A DNA stretch of 63,693 nucleotides, the filler included, from Anaerolineae bacterium (GTDB lineage Bacteria > Chloroflexota > Anaerolineae > B4-G1 > DUEL01), in assembly GCA_041082215.1 (NCBI GenBank). It is 8 parts of 8 records of this genome, joined end to end, with 100 filler letters (N's around TTAATTAATTAA, not from the genome) between each part and the next. Parts side by side here need not be neighbours in the genome. Positions count along the whole stretch, not along the records: positions 58,811 to 62,321 come from JBDOIF010000019.1; 7 more parts are not named here. The stretch is one strand, 5' to 3'. The first letter of the stretch is position 1. The number at the start of each line of letters is the position of its first letter. The translations under genes were made by a program, and so were the position numbers. The notes under the pieces are model-generated. The model was not told where the DNA came from and did no database searches. It worked only from the letters and a program-made list of their open reading frames with translations. Of the stretch, positions 3,906 to 62,421 are shown piece by piece.

Positions 3906-4787
3906 GGTCGTTCCCAGCAGCTGCTCCACCTGTCTCCCCGCGTGGAAGGAACTGCGCACCAGCGGGCCACTTTCCACCCAGCGGAACCCCATCGCCAGTC
4001 CCTGCTCCCGGAACATCTCGAACTCCTCCGGAGTATAGTACCGCTCGATGGGCAGGTGACGGCGGGAGGGCTGGAGGTACTGGCCTATGGTCAGGATGTC
4101 CACATCCACCCGGCGCAGGTCCTCCATCACTGCCAGCACCTCTTCCACTGTTTCTCCCATCCCCACCATCAGCCCGCTCTTGGTGAGCACCTCTGGCTCC
4201 ATTCGTTTGGCCTCCATCAGGATGCGGAGCGACCAGTCGTACCGGTTGCGGGGCTGGACGCGCCCGAAGAGGCGGGGGACCGTTTCCACGTTGTGGTTAA
4301 GGATGTCGGGCCGGGCTTCCATCACCATCCGCAGCGGCTCCAGCTCCCCCTGGAAGTCGGGGATCAGCACCTCGACGGTGCAGCCGGGCCGGAGGGCGCG
4401 GACCTGCCGGATCACCTCGGCGAAGAGGGAAGCGCCGCCGTCGGGGAGGTCGTCCCGGGTGACGGAGGTGATGACGGCATGACGAAGCCCCATCGCCTGT
4501 ACCGCCTCCGCGACCCGACGGGGCTCTTCGGGATCGGGCGGGCCGGGCCGGCCGCTGCGGACGTTGCAGAAACGGCAGTTGCGGGTGCAGGTATCCCCCA
4601 GGATGAGGAAAGTGGCGGTGCGGTGGGACCAGCAGTCGCCGATGTTGGGGCAGTTGGCCTCCTCACAGACGGTGTGAAGCTGCCTGGCCCGCATCAGCCG
4701 CTTGAGTTCATGGTAACTCTCACCAGTCCGGGGCGGCACCCGCAGCCACTCCGGGCGGCGTTGGGGACGGAGAGGTGGCCTGTCCAT
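3897..4787 (-). CDS. lipA: Lipoyl synthase
   Basis: [13 protein letters not shown] and CTRNCRFC clusters; C-terminal GPLVRSS. Confidence 0.95.
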
Positions 4788-4901
4788 TTCGGGGATATTG
4801 TAGCACAACTTCTCTCTTTTGCACGCCGCCCAATTTCCCGGTTGCATTTCAGTTTGGTGGCGAGTTACACCTTAATTTTGCCCACCTGGTGGTGGTTTGA
4901 A

Positions 4902-10684: not shown

Positions 10685-10784
10685 NNNNNNNNNNNNNNNN
10701 NNNNNNNNNNNNNNNNNNNNNNNNNNNNTTAATTAATTAANNNNNNNNNNNNNNNNNNNNNNNNNNNNNNNNNNNNNNNNNNNN

Positions 10785-20561: not shown

Positions 20562-20703
20562 NNNNNNNNNNNNNNNNNNNNNNNNNNNNNNNNNNNNNNN
20601 NNNNNTTAATTAATTAANNNNNNNNNNNNNNNNNNNNNNNNNNNNNNNNNNNNNNNNNNNNGCGTAGCGCCGGATTTATCCGGCGCCGGAGAGGAGGCGT
20701 GAC

Positions 20704-25485: not shown

Positions 25486-25585
25486 NNNNNNNNNNNNNNN
25501 NNNNNNNNNNNNNNNNNNNNNNNNNNNNNTTAATTAATTAANNNNNNNNNNNNNNNNNNNNNNNNNNNNNNNNNNNNNNNNNNNN

Positions 25586-57230: not shown

Positions 57231-57330
57231 NNNNNNNNNNNNNNNNNNNNNNNNNNNNNNNNNNNNNNNNNNNNTTAATTAATTAANNNNNNNNNNNNNN
57301 NNNNNNNNNNNNNNNNNNNNNNNNNNNNNN

Positions 57331-58710: not shown

Positions 58711-58858
58711 NNNNNNNNNNNNNNNNNNNNNNNNNNNNNNNNNNNNNNNNNNNNTTAATTAATTAANNNNNNNNNNNNNNNNNNNNNNNNNNNNNNNNNN
58801 NNNNNNNNNNCCACAGCATTCCCCGCATATTCCACCTCAGGCGCCCCCAGGAGGGGGC

Positions 58859-59002
58859 TTATGCATTTTTGCCGCAGTACCGTTCCAGGCGGTCCAGCGC
58901 CACCGGGTCGTTGCCTGCGGGGATTCGCCCCCGCAGGGCATTGGCCCCCAGCGCCAGAACCACTCCCACAACGATACCGACGACCACCAGCAGCACACCC
59001 AT
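58859..59002 (-). CDS. Small (47 aa) membrane protein
   Basis: GGAGGTGA RBS; MGVLLVVVGIVVGVVLALGANALRGRIPAGNDPVALDRLERYCGKNA*; below the ORF-track size cutoff. Confidence 0.6.
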   Translation of the reverse strand: MGVLLVVVGIVVGVVLALGANALRGRIPAGNDPVALDRLERYCGKNA

Positions 59003-59019
59003 CGTTCACCTCCCGGTGT

Positions 59020-59483
59020 GGTTGAGTTTGCCCCGGAGCTTTCCCGGAGCCCTGCCCTCGACGACAGGGGTGGAAGCCCAACAGAGTTGGACTCCCAATC
59101 CTGCCGTCGAGGAGGCCCCGGAAGCGTGGCTGCTCCGGCACACCGGAAGGTGCCCTCCCGCCACGAGGGAGGTGTGAGTTGTCTGCCCCCTCCTGGGGGT
59201 GGCCGGGGCCGACATCCCTTTGCAGGGGCGTCAGCCTTTCCCACACCCGGGCAGCGGTCCCCCGAAGGGGCAGGCTCGGTGTGGGATGCCGAAGCAGGAG
59301 AGACTCCTGCCCCGGAGTCCCACACCCAGCCTCCGTCAACCCGGATGACGCCACGGTTTCGTCCTTCTCAGGGCGAAGCGACACACTGCGGGGTGTGCGT
59401 CGGTCAGCCCCGGCCCTGTAGCAAACGGTGCTCTCTGCTCCCGGCCACGTGTGGGCCCCAGGGAACGCCGCGCCGCCCGCTAC
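59020..59483 (-). ncRNA. Candidate large structured RNA (unclassified)
   Basis: Many stems, mostly with G-U pairs on the minus strand; GAGA, UUCG and GCAA tetraloops; no credible ORF. Confidence 0.5.
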
Positions 59484-59957
59484 CTATGGTATCAGGCCGC
59501 CATCCGGCAGCCAGGCCCGCATGCGGACCTGCGCGATCCCCTCCCGTTCCACCACGATGGGCGGAAAGACCTCCGGGAACAGCGGACTCAGGTCTGCCGC
59601 ACAGCGGACGGTGACCGTCTGGTTCAACTGGTCGGCGTAGATGTAAGTCACTCGCACGTGGATGCCCTGGGCGTCGAGATAGTTCGTATTCAGGTTGGCG
59701 TAGTGTTCGGCCCTCCAGTATGGAACCTGGTCGGCGAACCAGACGTAGCCCTCGTTCTCGAAGAGCCGCACCACGATGTCCCTGGACGCCGCCAGCGCGG
59801 CCAGGTCTGCCGCTTCCTGCACCTCGGCGGCGGCGATGGCATAGCGCCCGATGCCGATAGCCAGGCTCAGCAGCGGCAGCATCAGGAAAGTGAAGAAGGC
59901 GGTCCACCAGGTGATGGAATAGCCGCGCCGGTCACGGATCAGGCGGCTCATCACCAT
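59484..59957 (-). CDS. TadG/Tad-like minor pilin
   Basis: RDRRGY prepilin-like N-terminus plus TM; VQEAADLAALAA. Confidence 0.75.
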   Translation of the reverse strand: MVMSRLIRDRRGYSITWWTAFFTFLMLPLLSLAIGIGRYAIAAAEVQEAADLAALAASRDIVVRLFENEGYVWFADQVPYWRAEHYANLNTNYLDAQGIHVRVTYIYADQLNQTVTVRCAADLSPLFPEVFPPIVVEREGIAQVRMRAWLPDGGLIP

Positions 59958-60352
59958 CCCTCCTGCCGTGCAGTGGCTTCCCCGAAGACGGTGAATGGCC
60001 CTGGGGGGATACCCGGAAAGCCGCCGACCAGGTTGGGGACACGGTAGGAGACGCGGATACGGAGCTCTGTCCCCACGACGCCGCCGGGAGCCAGGATCCG
60101 CACCTCCGGCTCGCCGATGGGGAGGGCGCTCTCGGCAAATTCCAGGGCAGCCACATACGCCCGCATGGCCGGGTTGTCCTGGGCCACCGACCCCATCCGC
60201 GCCCCGTGCCGGGCGGCTTCCTTAGCCATCTGCGAGCCGTAGACCACGATGCCGAACTGGACCATCCCCAGCAGGAGGAGAAGCACGATGGGCAGCGTCA
60301 GCGCCGCCTCGGTCAGTTCGCTGGCCCGTCTGTTCAGCAGAAATCGCCTCAT
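59951..60352 (-). CDS. TadE-family minor pilin
   Basis: RASELTEAALTLPIVLLLLLG..AARHGAR. Confidence 0.85.
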   Translation of the reverse strand: MRRFLLNRRASELTEAALTLPIVLLLLLGMVQFGIVVYGSQMAKEAARHGARMGSVAQDNPAMRAYVAALEFAESALPIGEPEVRILAPGGVVGTELRIRVSYRVPNLVGGFPGIPPGPFTVFGEATARQEGW

Positions 60353-60393
60353 ACACACCTCCAGAGACAGGTTTCTCGCTGGCCGGTCGCCGA

Positions 60394-60549
60394 TTACCCG
60401 CCGCCGATGGCGCTGGCAACCCGGTTGAGCACGTCGCTGATGTTGCCCCCCAGGAGTCGGAGCGCGATGATGGCGACCACAACGACCAGCGCCAGGACCA
60501 GGCCGACCTCGGTGAGTTCCGCTCCCTGCCGGTCTTTGAGCAGACGCAT
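60394..60549 (-). CDS. Flp-family type IVb pilin
   Basis: MRLLKDRQG|AELTEVGLVLALVVVVAI; 51 aa; strong RBS. Confidence 0.85.
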   Translation of the reverse strand: MRLLKDRQGAELTEVGLVLALVVVVAIIALRLLGGNISDVLNRVASAIGGG

Positions 60550-60568
60550 CTTTCTCACCTCCTTTCTC

Positions 60569-61144
60569 TCAGAGATAGAACCACACGTACACCAGCCCGG
60601 CCATCGCCACCGCCGGCAGAGCTGGGGACCTGTGTCCAGACCGCGATGGGTGGGCCATTTTCCCCAGGGTAGAGAGGAGCACCCGTGGGGTGGTCCGTCC
60701 GTGTCGTCGGACCACATATACCAGGCTGAATCCCAGCCAGGCCAGCAGCAGCAGCCAGGCCAGGCGGGGATCCGGGAACAGTACCATCAGAGTCATCACC
60801 GTTTTCACATCTGCTCCGCCCAGCACATCCAGGAGCCACAGGACCAGGACAACGATCCACACCGCCGTCGTTGCTTCCATTCCCTGGATGGTAACCTGGG
60901 GCCAGATGGCGACAATCCCCGCAATGCCCAGCGGCCAGGTAATCGGCCATTCGGCCACAAACAGCCCCAGAACCAGCAAGACGGCAGCCGTCCACTCTCC
61001 CCTGACCGTCTGCCAGGCCACCGCTCCCAGGAGCGGCGGGACGGTGGCCCAGTTGGTGACCTGGCCGTGACGGATGTCGGCCAGGGCCAGATAGACCAGC
61101 CAGGCGGAGATTGTCAGACGGAATGCCGCTTCTGCAAGGCTCAT
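60569..61144 (-). CDS. Prepilin peptidase (A24, CpaA/TadV-like)
   Basis: LADIRHGQVTN and LGGADVK aspartate motifs. Confidence 0.85.
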   Translation of the reverse strand: MSLAEAAFRLTISAWLVYLALADIRHGQVTNWATVPPLLGAVAWQTVRGEWTAAVLLVLGLFVAEWPITWPLGIAGIVAIWPQVTIQGMEATTAVWIVVLVLWLLDVLGGADVKTVMTLMVLFPDPRLAWLLLLAWLGFSLVYVVRRHGRTTPRVLLSTLGKMAHPSRSGHRSPALPAVAMAGLVYVWFYL

Positions 61145-61710
61145 CGCGCTGGCTTTCCTCCGGTTGGCTGGGGTACCACGTACAGGTACCAGCGGGCGGT
61201 GCGGGGCAGGGCCTGTTGCTCGACAGGGATGCCATTCTCCTGGGCCAGGAGCGTCCAGATGGCTGCCAGCTCCGCCGCTGCGGTCAGCCCCGACGTGGAG
61301 GCGTCAATCGGGTAGGCCGGGACCCTGCGGGGCCGGTCGCCCAGCAGGCCATCGGCCTGCCGTGCCACTTCAGGCGCGGCGGTGGTGAACACATAGTGGT
61401 CGAAGTTCTTGCCCAGGGCGACCAGAGCGGGAACGGGGCTGGCGGTGACCCTGATCACCTGGTCAATGCCCGCCTGCTCCCCGGTGGCTTCCAGGGCAAA
61501 GCGGCCCAGGCGGGAGACCACCTCGTGGCGATGGACGGTCACCGTTCGGGCCAGTTCTTCCCGCCTTGCTTCCAGACGGGCCAGCCCCAGGTCAAGCGCC
61601 TGGCGGTTCCCTTCGCGGATGGCGTTGCGGATGCGTTCGTTGGTCAACAACACCAGCACCAGGTTGACCGCCAGGAGCAGCACAACCAGAGTCAGCAGCA
61701 ATTCAGTCAT
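61141..61710 (-). CDS. Hypothetical membrane-anchored protein
   Basis: N-terminal TM helix; overlaps both neighbours. Confidence 0.65.
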   Translation of the reverse strand: MTELLLTLVVLLLAVNLVLVLLTNERIRNAIREGNRQALDLGLARLEARREELARTVTVHRHEVVSRLGRFALEATGEQAGIDQVIRVTASPVPALVALGKNFDHYVFTTAAPEVARQADGLLGDRPRRVPAYPIDASTSGLTAAAELAAIWTLLAQENGIPVEQQALPRTARWYLYVVPQPTGGKPAR

Positions 61711-62321
61711 TCCTTCCCTCCAGATAACCGGATAAGAGTTCTGATAGTTGCCCCTCTATCTTTACCCTTTCGCGGATAGCCTGAGCAATGCGGGGTCGTC
61801 CTCCCATCTGCCCCAGAAAGAGCAGGATCACACCCAGGAGAATCCCGAAGGGCCAGGCAGGGGCGACCGGTAGGTCGCCCGTACTTGCCCTGGGGACCAG
61901 CCCGAAGGCGAAGGCCACGTCTGCGGCCATTCCGACCGGCAGGGCCTTTCCACCCCCAACCCCGCTGGCGGGGCCAGGGGTGGGGAGCATTGTCACCGAG
62001 CCGTCCTCCCCGACGCGGACCTCCACCGCCAGCCGGGTCGTCGGCTCCCACCCCGCCCCTGGCCGGTCAACCAGATAGACGGTGTACACCCCCGCCCCCG
62101 GCAGCGTCACCGTCACCACGCCGGAGGGGTCAGGGAGGAGCATCTGTACCCACCCGTCGGGGCCGTCCACCCGCACCCGCAGCCCTGCCAGCCCCGGCTC
62201 TCCCGACTGGCGGAAAGCGTCGGCGTTGGCGTCCTCGAAGACCGCCACCCGCAGGACCACCCCTGGCAGAGGTTCCGGTTCGACCATCGGAGGGGGGGTG
62301 GTCGGCGCTGGTGTCGGTGTT
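61703..62321 (-). CDS. Surface protein C-terminus (SdrD-B/Cna-like repeat plus TM anchor), 5' truncated
   Basis: Pro/Thr linker, VFEDANAD..GEPGLAG, C-terminal TM helix. Confidence 0.65.
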
Positions 62322-62421
62322 NNNNNNNNNNNNNNNNNNNNNNNNNNNNNNNNNNNNNNNNNNNNTTAATTAATTAANNNNNNNNNNNNNNNNNNNNNNN
62401 NNNNNNNNNNNNNNNNNNNNN

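Follow-up and report, generated by a model that had tools for sequence, protein, structure and literature searches.

The 63.7-kb window, that is, the whole stretch of DNA analysed here, is made of contigs joined by N44-TTAATTAATTAA-N44 linkers, and only positions 58811-62321 are contiguous with the element described below. In this contig, a 157-aa TadE/G-like pseudopilin gene (59484..59957, minus strand; Pfam PF13400 'Tad', E 1.3e-07) is followed, directly after its TAG stop, by a structured element of about 480 bases (59003-59486, minus strand) that separates this Tad pilus gene from a tiny membrane-protein gene. The latter, ORF1 (58859..59002, minus strand), encodes 47 aa with one predicted membrane helix and, according to the alignment, a conserved C-terminal DPxxLxRLxxYC motif. 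Its product is 41-44% identical to those of the homologous loci L003, L005 and L009, has homologues of 47-54 aa that likewise carry one hydrophobic helix, belongs to a family of only five clusters among 5.8 billion proteins, and matched no Pfam or NCBIfam family. It is followed by the start of ORF2 (MRGMLW..., 58811..58828, minus strand), cut off by the contig end, whose homologues encode a hydrophobic protein of 47-51 aa. Pilin genes lie upstream of the element. Scans of the window contig, and of the stretch from Tad gene to ORF2 in L003 and L009 (sense strand), showed neither a sigma-70-like promoter nor an intrinsic terminator.

The minus (sense) strand of 59003-59486 folded with a minimum free energy (MFE) of -303.1 kcal/mol, far from the -236.0±7.2 kcal/mol of 100 dinucleotide shuffles (z = -9.31, none as good), while the plus strand of the same region gave -261.5 kcal/mol (z = -5.30). 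The first-pass annotation had pointed out a bias of G-U pairs to the minus strand, and this is confirmed here: they made up 19/180 pairs of the window MFE in the sense strand and 11/168 in the antisense strand, the sums over six homologues were 94/955 and 44/902, respectively, and the sense strand was the more stable one in all six. When the sense structure was imposed on the antisense strand, the energies fell below the antisense MFE, an artefact of the scoring of non-standard pairs that was discarded. About 74% of the nucleotides of the element are predicted to be paired, and the fold still amounts to about -170 kcal/mol at 65 °C. The six folded homologues showed z values of -8.1 to -10.5 (L003, -9.8; L002, -10.5; L008, -9.5; and, in the distant loci, L024, -8.1 and L023, -8.8), together with compensatory pairs. 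Region 59003-59486 is a conserved, unclassified structured RNA that is specific to the sense strand.

The helices listed in the first-pass annotation were all recovered on the minus strand at the coordinates given there, except that the rod proved slightly longer. The 5' hairpin, D1 (59418..59483, minus strand), is closed by GUAGC and GCUAC (59483-59470 with 59431-59418) and has a conserved apical CCUGGGGCC..GGCCGGG; a five-sequence RNAalifold alignment gave 17 pairs, 5 of them with compensatory change. It is absent from L002, and similar hairpins were recognized by eye in L023 and L024. Next to it lies a core domain (59201..59415, minus strand), a multi-helix junction closed by the 13-bp long-range stem P1 (59415-59403 with 59213-59201), which was found both by the inverted-repeat search and in the MFE structure. 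RNAalifold on six sequences assigned 59 pairs to the core, with 94.7% of cells paired and 21 pairs compensatory; shuffled alignments had 10.6±2.2 covarying pairs (0/500 reached 21) and slid controls 2-7. A model built on this core, R1, scored 130-209 bits on the sense strand. The hallmark of the family is the central hairpin (59272..59332, minus strand), identified by the inverted-repeat search, with a base formed by GGCUGGGUGUGGGA and UCCCACACCGAGCC and a variable tip: 15 of 24 pairs showed compensatory change in an eight-sequence alignment, and it is the sole part that R1 detects in the distant L023 and L024. The core also holds three small hairpins, all on the minus strand and present in the MFE structure: one with a GAGA tetraloop (59358..59377; helix 3, in which the homologues align only in part), a CCCC[UUCG]GGGG hairpin (59259..59270; helix 7, with 3 pairs, 1 of them covarying, and 83% of cells paired) and a CCCU[GCAA]AGGG hairpin (59216..59227). 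At the place of the last one, L003 and L005 have a GCAA-capped hairpin on another stem, the loops of L008 and L009 differ, and L002 has no hairpin.

The 3' part is a rod (59004..59155, minus strand), an extended MFE hairpin of about 55 bp that runs a little beyond the length first claimed and measures 40-55 bp across homologues. Compensatory change affected 14 of its 42 pairs, counted on four homologues only because the six-homologue rod alignment was too poor for the window and L008. Between core and rod lies the 5' arm of a second long-range helix (CCCCCAGGAGGGGGC, 59185..59199, minus strand), which can alternatively form a local hairpin; its 3' arm (GCCCCCUCCUGGGGG, 58844..58858, minus strand) is located between the ORF1 stop and the Shine-Dalgarno sequence (SD) of ORF2. 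Both arms came from the inverted-repeat search, as parts of a 24-nt inverted repeat (59185-59208 / 58835-58858) that flanks ORF1. The resulting bracket helix has a duplex energy of -40.4 kcal/mol in the window (0/300 shuffles as good) and of -35 to -46 kcal/mol across homologues (0/300 shuffles in 5/6), and the full-transcript MFE of all six homologues contains it as 13-28 bp around ORF1. In L008 it reaches into sequence beyond the local palindromes, and lineages differ by covarying changes in its arms and loops (L003, for instance, has CCCUCCAGGGGAGAGGGC / GCCCUCUCCCCUGGAGGG).

Of 13 readable loci, all anchored by relatives of the pseudopilin (59-81% identity), 8 carry a homologous element of 300-600 nt behind this Tad-like gene. 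The proposed tie to a Tad/Flp cluster is supported. The five Tad loci that do without it are L001, L004, L006, L007 and L022, and in L006 and L007 the Tad gene is followed directly by ORF2. All eight copies have the same orientation, and in seven the element starts 0-45 nt from the Tad stop codon. In the eighth, L023, about 290 nt and a promoter-like site (TTGACA-17-TATACT, 11/12 matches, with TG) intervene; this site, which is a single match to the consensus at a single locus, stops about 9 nt short of D1, a position that fits a role of the RNA as leader for downstream sequence. In L008 the module lies at the operon end, with a convergent gene next to it. The small ORF of L024 was only 12% identical to ORF2, which does not establish homology. 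ORF1 is truncated in L008 and deleted in L002, and the RNA is kept in both.

These eight known examples come from a few hot-spring-type Chloroflexota sequences, and the eight public runs that contain the sequence are all hot-spring DNA metagenomes, from two studies. Copy number was assessed by running R1 over the window and over two genomes that carry a homologue, G001 (2.3 Mb) and G002 (5.3 Mb); each genome had one locus, and the window had no second copy (best other match, E = 0.095). A dispersed repeat of the REP or MITE type is thus ruled out. Genome G242, whose order and class were represented by only two genomes, carries two copies, each behind its own Tad-like gene. No R1 match was obtained in samples of 150 other genomes of the class of G001, of 39 relatives of G001 and of 40 relatives of G002. 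In a viral collection, the Tad protein alignment had no match and the central-hairpin pattern only one AT-rich chance match (L020).

Since the alignments contained 4-8 sequences from about five lineages and the structures were derived from those same alignments, the covariation statistics are indicative and below R-scape grade. Strain variation in the contigs of the second study agrees with them. The variant has 14 substitutions in the element, of which 7 fall on MFE pairs and 6 of these keep a standard pair, including a GC to AU double change at 59340/59251. Its MFE was -308.7 kcal/mol, as compared to -307.0 kcal/mol, and none of 60 random sets of 14 transitions (-286.9±7.6 kcal/mol) was as stable.

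As the first-pass annotation had supposed, no known family accounts for this RNA. Searches with the 4227 models of Rfam 15 at gathering score gave no match in the whole window or in five homologous loci, and a relaxed search yielded only matches of 14-32 bits, almost all to families with thresholds of 37-110 bits and mostly eukaryotic miRNA precursors lying on the long hairpins. A coding region is likewise rejected: no frame is kept across homologues, and each frame of L008, L003, L009 and L002 contains 1-8 stops. Two frames are stop-free in the window and one, antisense, in L005, and translated matches occurred in all six frames with the frame shifting between homologues. Translation past the Tad TAG stop, in the frame that is open in the window, is rejected as well, since L008 has 8 stops in that frame. 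Full-text literature searches and term look-ups in two 2026 preprints on intergenic elements, whose supplements might list such a motif, turned up no RNA described for Tad or Flp loci, and we know of no RNA-level control in pilus gene clusters. We take the element to represent a new, rare family of large structured RNA, of about 300-600 nt, that would be part of the sense transcript of a Tad-like pilus cluster.

The base of the rod bears directly on ORF1. There, an anti-SD CCUUC (59150-59146) pairs with the ORF1 SD, GGAGG (59013-59009), and across homologues CCUUC or CCUCC pairs with a GGAGG placed 6 nt before the start codon. The predicted probability that this SD is unpaired was 0.001 in the window and 0.001-0.118 over the six homologues, all of which thus have the downstream SD paired in the predicted ensemble, as expected of a translational operator. 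An anti-SD helix of this kind is also a feature of RNA thermometers and riboswitch platforms. However, the predicted unpaired probability in five homologues was only 0.01-0.10 at 65 °C and 0.03-0.21 at 75 °C, so that the helix is predicted to stay shut and a thermometer is rejected. Concerning riboswitches, no aptamer family was matched, although eight sequences are a small basis for recognizing conserved unpaired nucleotides. The first-pass annotation had proposed a switch in which two duplicated words compete for one partner. Both duplications exist (GGGUGUGGGA at 59327-59318 and 59248-59239, and GGCUGAC at 59409-59403 and 59236-59230), but the competing pairings are not conserved: the duplicated GGGUGUGGG word occurs only in the window and its closest relative, L008, and the second site reads GGGGCACGGG or AGAGCGCGGG in L003, L005, L009 and L002, and has a covarying partner of its own (helix 4, 3/7 pairs changed on both sides). 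Thus, of the suggested unclassified ncRNA or switch, the conserved, Tad/Flp-linked sense RNA stands and the switch pairing does not. None of the four refuting outcomes that the first-pass annotation had named (a known family or dispersed repeat, lack of covariation, a folding energy like that of shuffles, a conserved ORF) was observed.

Our preferred reading, to which we give about half of our confidence, is that the element is a cis-acting mRNA lock combined with a double-stranded-RNA processing module. According to this model, the rod would hold ORF1 translationally silent at any growth temperature, and rod, central hairpin and bracket helix would act as long, near-perfect duplexes offered to a double-strand-specific RNase of the RNase III type. 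Cleavage would split the small-ORF part from the pilin mRNA and either release or destroy the ribosome-binding site, and the small membrane proteins would in this way be expressed independently of the abundant pilin genes. We infer the action of RNase III solely from helix length. Such a site takes double-stranded RNA of about two helical turns or more; segments of up to 25-27 bp occur in the rod (in L002, 27 pairs without a mismatch), the central hairpin has 24-29 bp and the bracket helix 13-28 bp. RNase III processing stems are known from rRNA operon stalks, phage T7 intercistronic sites and rnc or adhE leaders. The element resembles them in its near-perfect helices of 20-29 bp and in a long-range helix that brackets a functional unit in a longer transcript, and its sub-threshold Rfam matches are mostly miRNA precursors, hence generic hairpins of the RNase III type. 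Unlike those sites, which are single hairpins of 40-60 nt, it has a conserved architecture of 300-600 nt, and its cleavage is a prediction.

The rod alone would be enough to hide the SD, and the conserved 200-nt core and D1 are left unexplained by the lock and processing model. Also, since the RNA is kept where ORF1 is truncated or deleted, ORF1 is not its sole client. This 5' half, made up of D1 and the P1-closed core, is more intricate than lock and processing alone call for, and most likely binds a factor or blocks exonucleases. A bolder proposal, which we put forward as rather unlikely, is that D1 and core constitute a novel class of large ornate RNA with an independent function on a transferable Tad-like pilus island of thermophilic Chloroflexota. 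It might regulate by binding a protein or ligand, or serve as a scaffold resistant to nucleases, and would decide whether the small membrane proteins of the island are made; it would then be a sensor or effector and not a passive hairpin. OLE, GOLLD, ROOL, HEARO/omega RNA and raiA, which are represented in Rfam, are comparable in size class, in their many covarying helices, in a narrow phyletic range and in the association with accessory DNA. In contrast to them, which gave no match up to E = 10 in the window stretch or up to E = 1 in the homologous loci, the element is without an Rfam match, its 3' half is plainly a translational operator, and only eight examples exist so far.

Bacterial RNAs of several hundred nt with many covarying helices are rare finds, and this one, for which Rfam 15 holds no counterpart, joins three devices inside a pilus gene cluster: a multi-helix domain with a closing stem, a very long helix concealing a ribosome-binding site, and a bracket helix round a small membrane-protein cistron. 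If the processing model is true, it would be a clear case of operon uncoupling by RNA structure in a thermophile; if the core binds a factor, it would define a new class of regulatory RNA; and if the small ORF is toxic, it would extend the logic of type I toxins to Chloroflexota.

The same architecture could also belong to a free-standing large ncRNA, trans-acting, scaffolding or catalytic, which would be freed from the transcript of the operon and for which the SD-hiding rod would be secondary. D1 and the P1-closed core do form a self-contained, covarying multi-helix domain that is retained after ORF1 loss, the central hairpin is conserved even in distant loci with different flanks, and the length matches that of known ornate bacterial RNAs. 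Several large bacterial RNAs sit in patchily distributed islands, as this one does, and in L023 the promoter-like site stands directly before D1. However, the scans revealed neither a terminator nor a defined 3' end, the element always lies in one orientation and at one place with respect to the Tad gene and the small ORFs, and the 3' half is clearly built round a ribosome-binding site; in addition, the sequences are too few to show the conserved unpaired nucleotides of a tertiary fold or active site. SD pairing in the predicted ensembles of 6/6 homologues favours cis action, and we consider the free-standing ncRNA doubtful.

That the element belongs to a hok/sok-like type I toxin-antitoxin module is unlikely in our opinion, although the parallels are several. 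ORF1 would be a small membrane toxin whose mRNA stays inactive before processing, through SD occlusion and a helix that closes 5' on 3' end, and the module would help to maintain a mobile island. The hok mRNA is known for fold-back inhibition of translation, and the element shares with such mRNAs a small hydrophobic ORF (a putative toxin here), a ribosome-binding site buried in a stable helix, and an accessory, patchy occurrence. As in hok, a long-range helix closes the cistron, predicted in 6/6 homologues like the locked SD, and the primary transcript should therefore be translationally inert until processing. The module is accessory, as exemplified by L006 and L007; ORF1 has decayed in 2/6 loci; and its protein family is tiny. 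On the other hand, no antisense RNA partner was found: on the antisense strand, a scan for one promoter type revealed no sigma-70-type promoter, and there was no conserved terminator. The element lacks its own promoter in most loci, the conserved C-terminal motif of ORF1 is soluble, unlike a bare hydrophobic peptide, and Pfam and NCBIfam returned no toxin family. Moreover, the element has no sequence or Rfam similarity to type I systems, is 3-5 times larger, has a separate multi-helix 5' domain, and is located inside a pilus operon where the RNA outlives the loss of the ORF.

It is very unlikely, in turn, that the element is simply a 3' stabilizer of the pilin mRNA, blocking exonucleases so that the flp-tadE-tad part ahead of it lasts longer, in the way in which intercistronic hairpins stabilize mRNA in the Rhodobacter puf operon. 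Its extreme stability at 65 °C, its place close behind the Tad stop codon and downstream of the pilin genes, and its position at the operon end in L008 would suit that role. However, a single hairpin is enough for the job, SD pairing and the ORF-bracketing helix point downstream, the element of L023 is set away from the Tad gene, and five Tad loci do without it.

Finally, a function at the DNA level was the alternative offered by the first-pass annotation. A homologous 25.8-kb contig places the Tad/Flp cluster in an island with duplicated CpaF and CpaB, a LysM-CAP protein and a 1251-aa HerA/VirB4-like ATPase protein (NF033849), and this, with the patchy distribution and the 24-nt inverted repeat around ORF1, might suggest that the element serves a transferable island as single-strand origin, oriT or single-strand promoter, or that the repeat delimits a segment able to invert or transpose. 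We judge such a role extremely improbable, because the strand that folds is the sense strand of the mRNA and engages the SD in pairing, substitutions obey RNA rules (U-G to C-G and C-G to U-G), all copies share one orientation, the single copy in each of two genomes does not correspond to a MITE, Pfam named no relaxase or replication gene among the 18 ORFs of the 25.8-kb contig (9 of them without family), a single-strand DNA origin is without positive support, and contigs of four runs have no joint, inversion or indel inside the element, a weak argument since contigs drop rare forms. With the second conserved region that follows ORF2, the element shares only a 9-mer, (C)ACCTTAAC(A).

The spacer between the gene for a TadE/G-like protein and ORF1, a small membrane-protein ORF, holds a large structured RNA element of an unclassified family, for which the comparative support is good. 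The minus (sense) strand of 59003-59486 folded with an MFE of -303.1 kcal/mol (z = -9.31 against 100 dinucleotide-preserving shuffles, -236.0±7.2), as against -261.5 kcal/mol (z = -5.30) for the plus strand of the same region, which bears out the unusual folding claimed in the first-pass annotation. The MFE structure also contained, where that annotation had located them, a GUAGC/GCUAC-closed domain, a 13-bp stem (59415-59403 with 59213-59201), hairpins capped by GAGA, UUCG and GCAA, and a long rod. Read 5' to 3' on the RNA, all on the minus strand, the element starts with a hairpin (D1, 59483-59418) that has no counterpart in the homologous locus L002, followed by the core (59415-59201), a junction closed by the long-range stem P1 and bearing several hairpins. 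Among these is a 26-bp central hairpin (59332-59272), and no sequence in the family is better conserved than its base, GG(U/C)U(C/G)GGUGUGG / CCACACC(G/A)A(A/G)CC. Then come a short palindrome forming the 5' arm of a bracket helix (59199-59185), the rod of about 55 bp (59155-59004), ORF1 itself (59002-58859), the 3' arm of the bracket helix (58858-58844), and the SD and start codon of a second small ORF, ORF2 (start from 58828).

The element lies on a 3.5-kb contig piece (58811-62321) in which every gene is on the minus strand: those for an SdrD-B-like protein, one unknown protein, a prepilin peptidase (PF01478), a Flp-like pilin (PF04964, below threshold), TadE (PF07811) and the 157-aa TadE/G-like protein (PF13400), which ends at 59484 and is separated from ORF1 by 481 non-coding bases. 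Downstream of ORF1, a GC-rich palindrome precedes the first six codons of ORF2, which is truncated by the contig end. The window chains seven or more such pieces by N44-TTAATTAATTAA-N44 linkers (1806-1905, 10685-10784, 20562-20661, 25486-25585, 57231-57330, 58711-58810 and 62322-62421), and genes flanking a linker are not genomic neighbours.

Homologues were searched for with the Tad-like protein as query, yielding three loci with one genome per species, eight in JGI metagenomes, and two further genomes in a sample of 401 genomes from the phylum of G001, a carrier genome; only three genomes of that sample had the protein. Thirteen loci, the window included, were readable 3' of the Tad-like gene, leaving out L010 and L011 (cut) and L025. 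The structured element followed this gene in only eight of them, the window, L002, L003, L005, L008, L009, L023 and L024, which are all the family members found. It was absent from the other five: the Tad-like gene was directly followed by a convergent gene in L001 and L004, and by ORF2 after about 35 nt in L006 and L007; L022 gave no match better than E = 0.05, filters off, to R1, a covariance model of the core. Element length ranged from 300 to 600 nt, and the six elements folded had z values of -8.1 to -10.5. In the distant members L023 and L024, R1 detected the central hairpin only (23.2 and 21.9 bits), the D1-like hairpin and P1-like core being recognised by eye. The RNA was not found in 150 other sampled genomes of the class of G001, nor in 39 sampled relatives of G001 or 40 of G002, a second carrier. 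The carriers are labelled Chloroflexota or Anaerolineales, except for one that bears the label Thermogutta. This patchy spread suggests that the host island is accessory and possibly transferable.

In agreement with its initial description as unclassified, neither the window nor five homologous loci gave an Rfam 15 match at gathering score. At relaxed thresholds, nearly all matches were of 14-32 bits for families requiring 37-110 bits, and were mostly eukaryotic miRNA precursors located on long hairpins. The first-pass annotation had also raised a dispersed repeat and a conserved ORF. The former is ruled out by the single R1 locus in each of two carrier genomes and the lack of a second one in the window (best other match, E = 0.095). 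A hidden gene is ruled out as well, since among homologues no frame stays open or holds its register, the window spacer itself having two frames without stops. One of these, the frame of the Tad TAG stop, is open throughout 59003-59483 (minus, 160 codons). Read-through of that stop was rejected, and the open frame attributed to GC content, because the corresponding frame of L008, the closest relative, contains eight stops.

Compensatory change was found in every alignment scored, as the proposal of a structured RNA had anticipated. For the core (six sequences; 94.7% of alignment cells paired), RNAalifold predicted 59 pairs with change on both sides in 21, a number reached by none of 500 column shuffles (10.6±2.2) and reduced to 2-7 when partners were slid by 1-3 columns. 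Compensatory pairs amounted to 15/24 in the central hairpin (eight sequences), 14/42 in the rod (four) and 5/17 in D1 (five); all these counts come from few sequences, with L003 and L005 near-identical, and from structures taken from the very alignments scored. The competing pairings that the first-pass annotation had read as a switch did not prove to be a conserved feature. The words GGGUGUGGGA and GGCUGAC are indeed duplicated in the window element, but GGGUGUGGG is duplicated in the window and L008 only and its second site has a covarying partner of its own (helix 4), and the second GGCUGAC of the window is GGUGAC in L008; for both words the second site differs in the other four homologues.

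A strain variant was present in hot-spring contigs of a second study, showing some 30 differences across the 1590 bases of 58811-60400; these contigs reach 323 bases past the end of the window contig at 58811. Within the element, contigs of two runs showed 14 substitutions and no indel or rearrangement. Seven were on unpaired positions of the MFE structure, and of the seven on paired positions six preserved a standard pair and one broke it; the six comprised a double change of G-C to A-U at 59340/59251, two U-G to C-G and two C-G to U-G. The variant folded at -308.7 kcal/mol (reference, -307.0), and none of 60 random sets of 14 transitions (-286.9±7.6) was as stable. Substitution density was about 2.9% in the element and about 1.4% in flanking coding sequence (13 in 917 plus 2 in 144 bases), the pattern expected of constraint on structure rather than on sequence.

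At the base of the rod, CCUUC (59150-59146) pairs with GGAGG (59013-59009), 6 nt ahead of the ORF1 start codon. The ORF1 SD was paired in all six close homologues, with an unpaired probability of 0.001-0.118 in the predicted ensemble. An RNA thermometer is excluded on these predictions, because the SD stayed paired at up to 75 °C (0.03-0.21 unpaired; five homologues tested) and the holders are hot-spring metagenomes. The arms of the bracket helix vary in sequence between lineages and are complementary through their loops (duplex, -35 to -46 kcal/mol); no shuffle out of 300 was equally good in five of six homologues, L002 being weak (65/300). In whole-transcript MFE structures the arms paired mutually in all six (13-28 pairs), and in L008 the pairing extended past the local palindromes into outside sequence, which favours a long-range helix over two separate hairpins.

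Fold, conservation, strand, SD pairing and bracket helix are computational results; beyond them, we give about an even chance to a cis-acting lock-and-processing RNA. ORF1 would be kept translationally silent, the 20-29-bp near-perfect helices would be cleaved by a double-strand-specific RNase, and cleavage would sever the link between the pilin mRNA and the small-ORF segment, freeing or destroying the ribosome-binding site. This reading leaves half of the molecule, the core and D1, unaccounted for; these may bind a factor or block an exonuclease. SD sequestration and long double-stranded segments are known devices, here in an arrangement and size of which we know no description.

Neither a sigma-70-type promoter nor an intrinsic terminator was found in the window contig, nor on the sense strand between the Tad gene and ORF2 in L003 and L009. 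In L023 (311-283, minus, the sense strand there), TTGACA-17-TATACT with an upstream TG matches 11/12 of the sigma-70 consensus and ends about 9 nt 5' of the D1-like hairpin; this one match at one locus suggests that the RNA can form the 5' portion of a transcript continuing into the small ORFs. ORF1, with one hydrophobic helix (47 aa in the window), is to judge by its sequence a real but very rare protein: four full-length copies shared 41-44% identity with that of the window, together with the C-terminal motif DPxxLxRLxxYC, only five clusters were returned by a profile search of 5.8 billion proteins, and no Pfam or NCBIfam family matched. The RNA is retained despite truncation of ORF1 in L008 and its near-complete deletion in L002.

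The rival readings partly overlap with the lock-and-processing one. A free-standing large RNA is unlikely, if the best placed of them. We consider a hok-like type I toxin module somewhat less probable still. A role as 3' stabiliser of the pilin mRNA is improbable. A DNA-level element is very improbable: RNA is favoured because, besides the ribosome-binding site pairing, the sense strand was the more stable in six of six homologues (by 11-43 kcal/mol), the G-U bias first noted in the window held among homologues (94/955 sense and 44/902 antisense pairs), and the wobble changes of the variant were neutral on the sense strand only. No inverted or excised form occurred in contigs of four runs; this speaks only weakly against a DNA switch, as rare forms are lost from contigs.

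In L002, ORF1 is reduced to a 25-codon frame (4757-4834), the stop codon of which overlaps the start of ORF2, so the locked SD may govern ORF2 there through translational coupling. The 25.8-kb contig of this locus (L016/L019, G002:C291) encodes two CpaF-type ATPases, two CpaB/RcpC proteins, a ParA/TadZ-like protein, a prepilin peptidase, a DUF6941 protein, a LysM-CAP protein and a 1251-aa 'serine-rich protein' (NCBIfam NF033849, E 1e-239) with weak C-terminal similarity to HerA, CedD and TraC; this Tad-like island may constitute a module that combines a pilus with DNA translocation in Anaerolineae-type bacteria.

The loci L006 and L007, from which the RNA is missing, also have ORF2, a hydrophobic protein of 47-51 aa. 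On the 3' side of ORF2 is a further conserved and seemingly structured region of ~210 nt (L003:2692-2905, L005:3636-3848, L009:1128-1345, L002:4958-5165), beyond the point where the window contig stops. RNAalifold on these four sequences gave 44 pairs, ten of them compensatory; no Rfam family matched, and a divergent form of the region occurs in L006 and L007. The sole similarity between the two structured regions is the word (C)ACCTTAAC(A), which marks the 5' edge of both, after the Tad stop and after the ORF2 stop (L003:1962-1972 and 2702-2712; equivalent places in L005, L009 and L002). No other spot there is both A/U-rich and single-stranded. The word could mark a site of processing or binding. 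The gene for a SWIM zinc-finger protein, with PVAQRPG repeats rich in proline, lies 3' of the second region (L009:1914-3239; L002:5467-5864).
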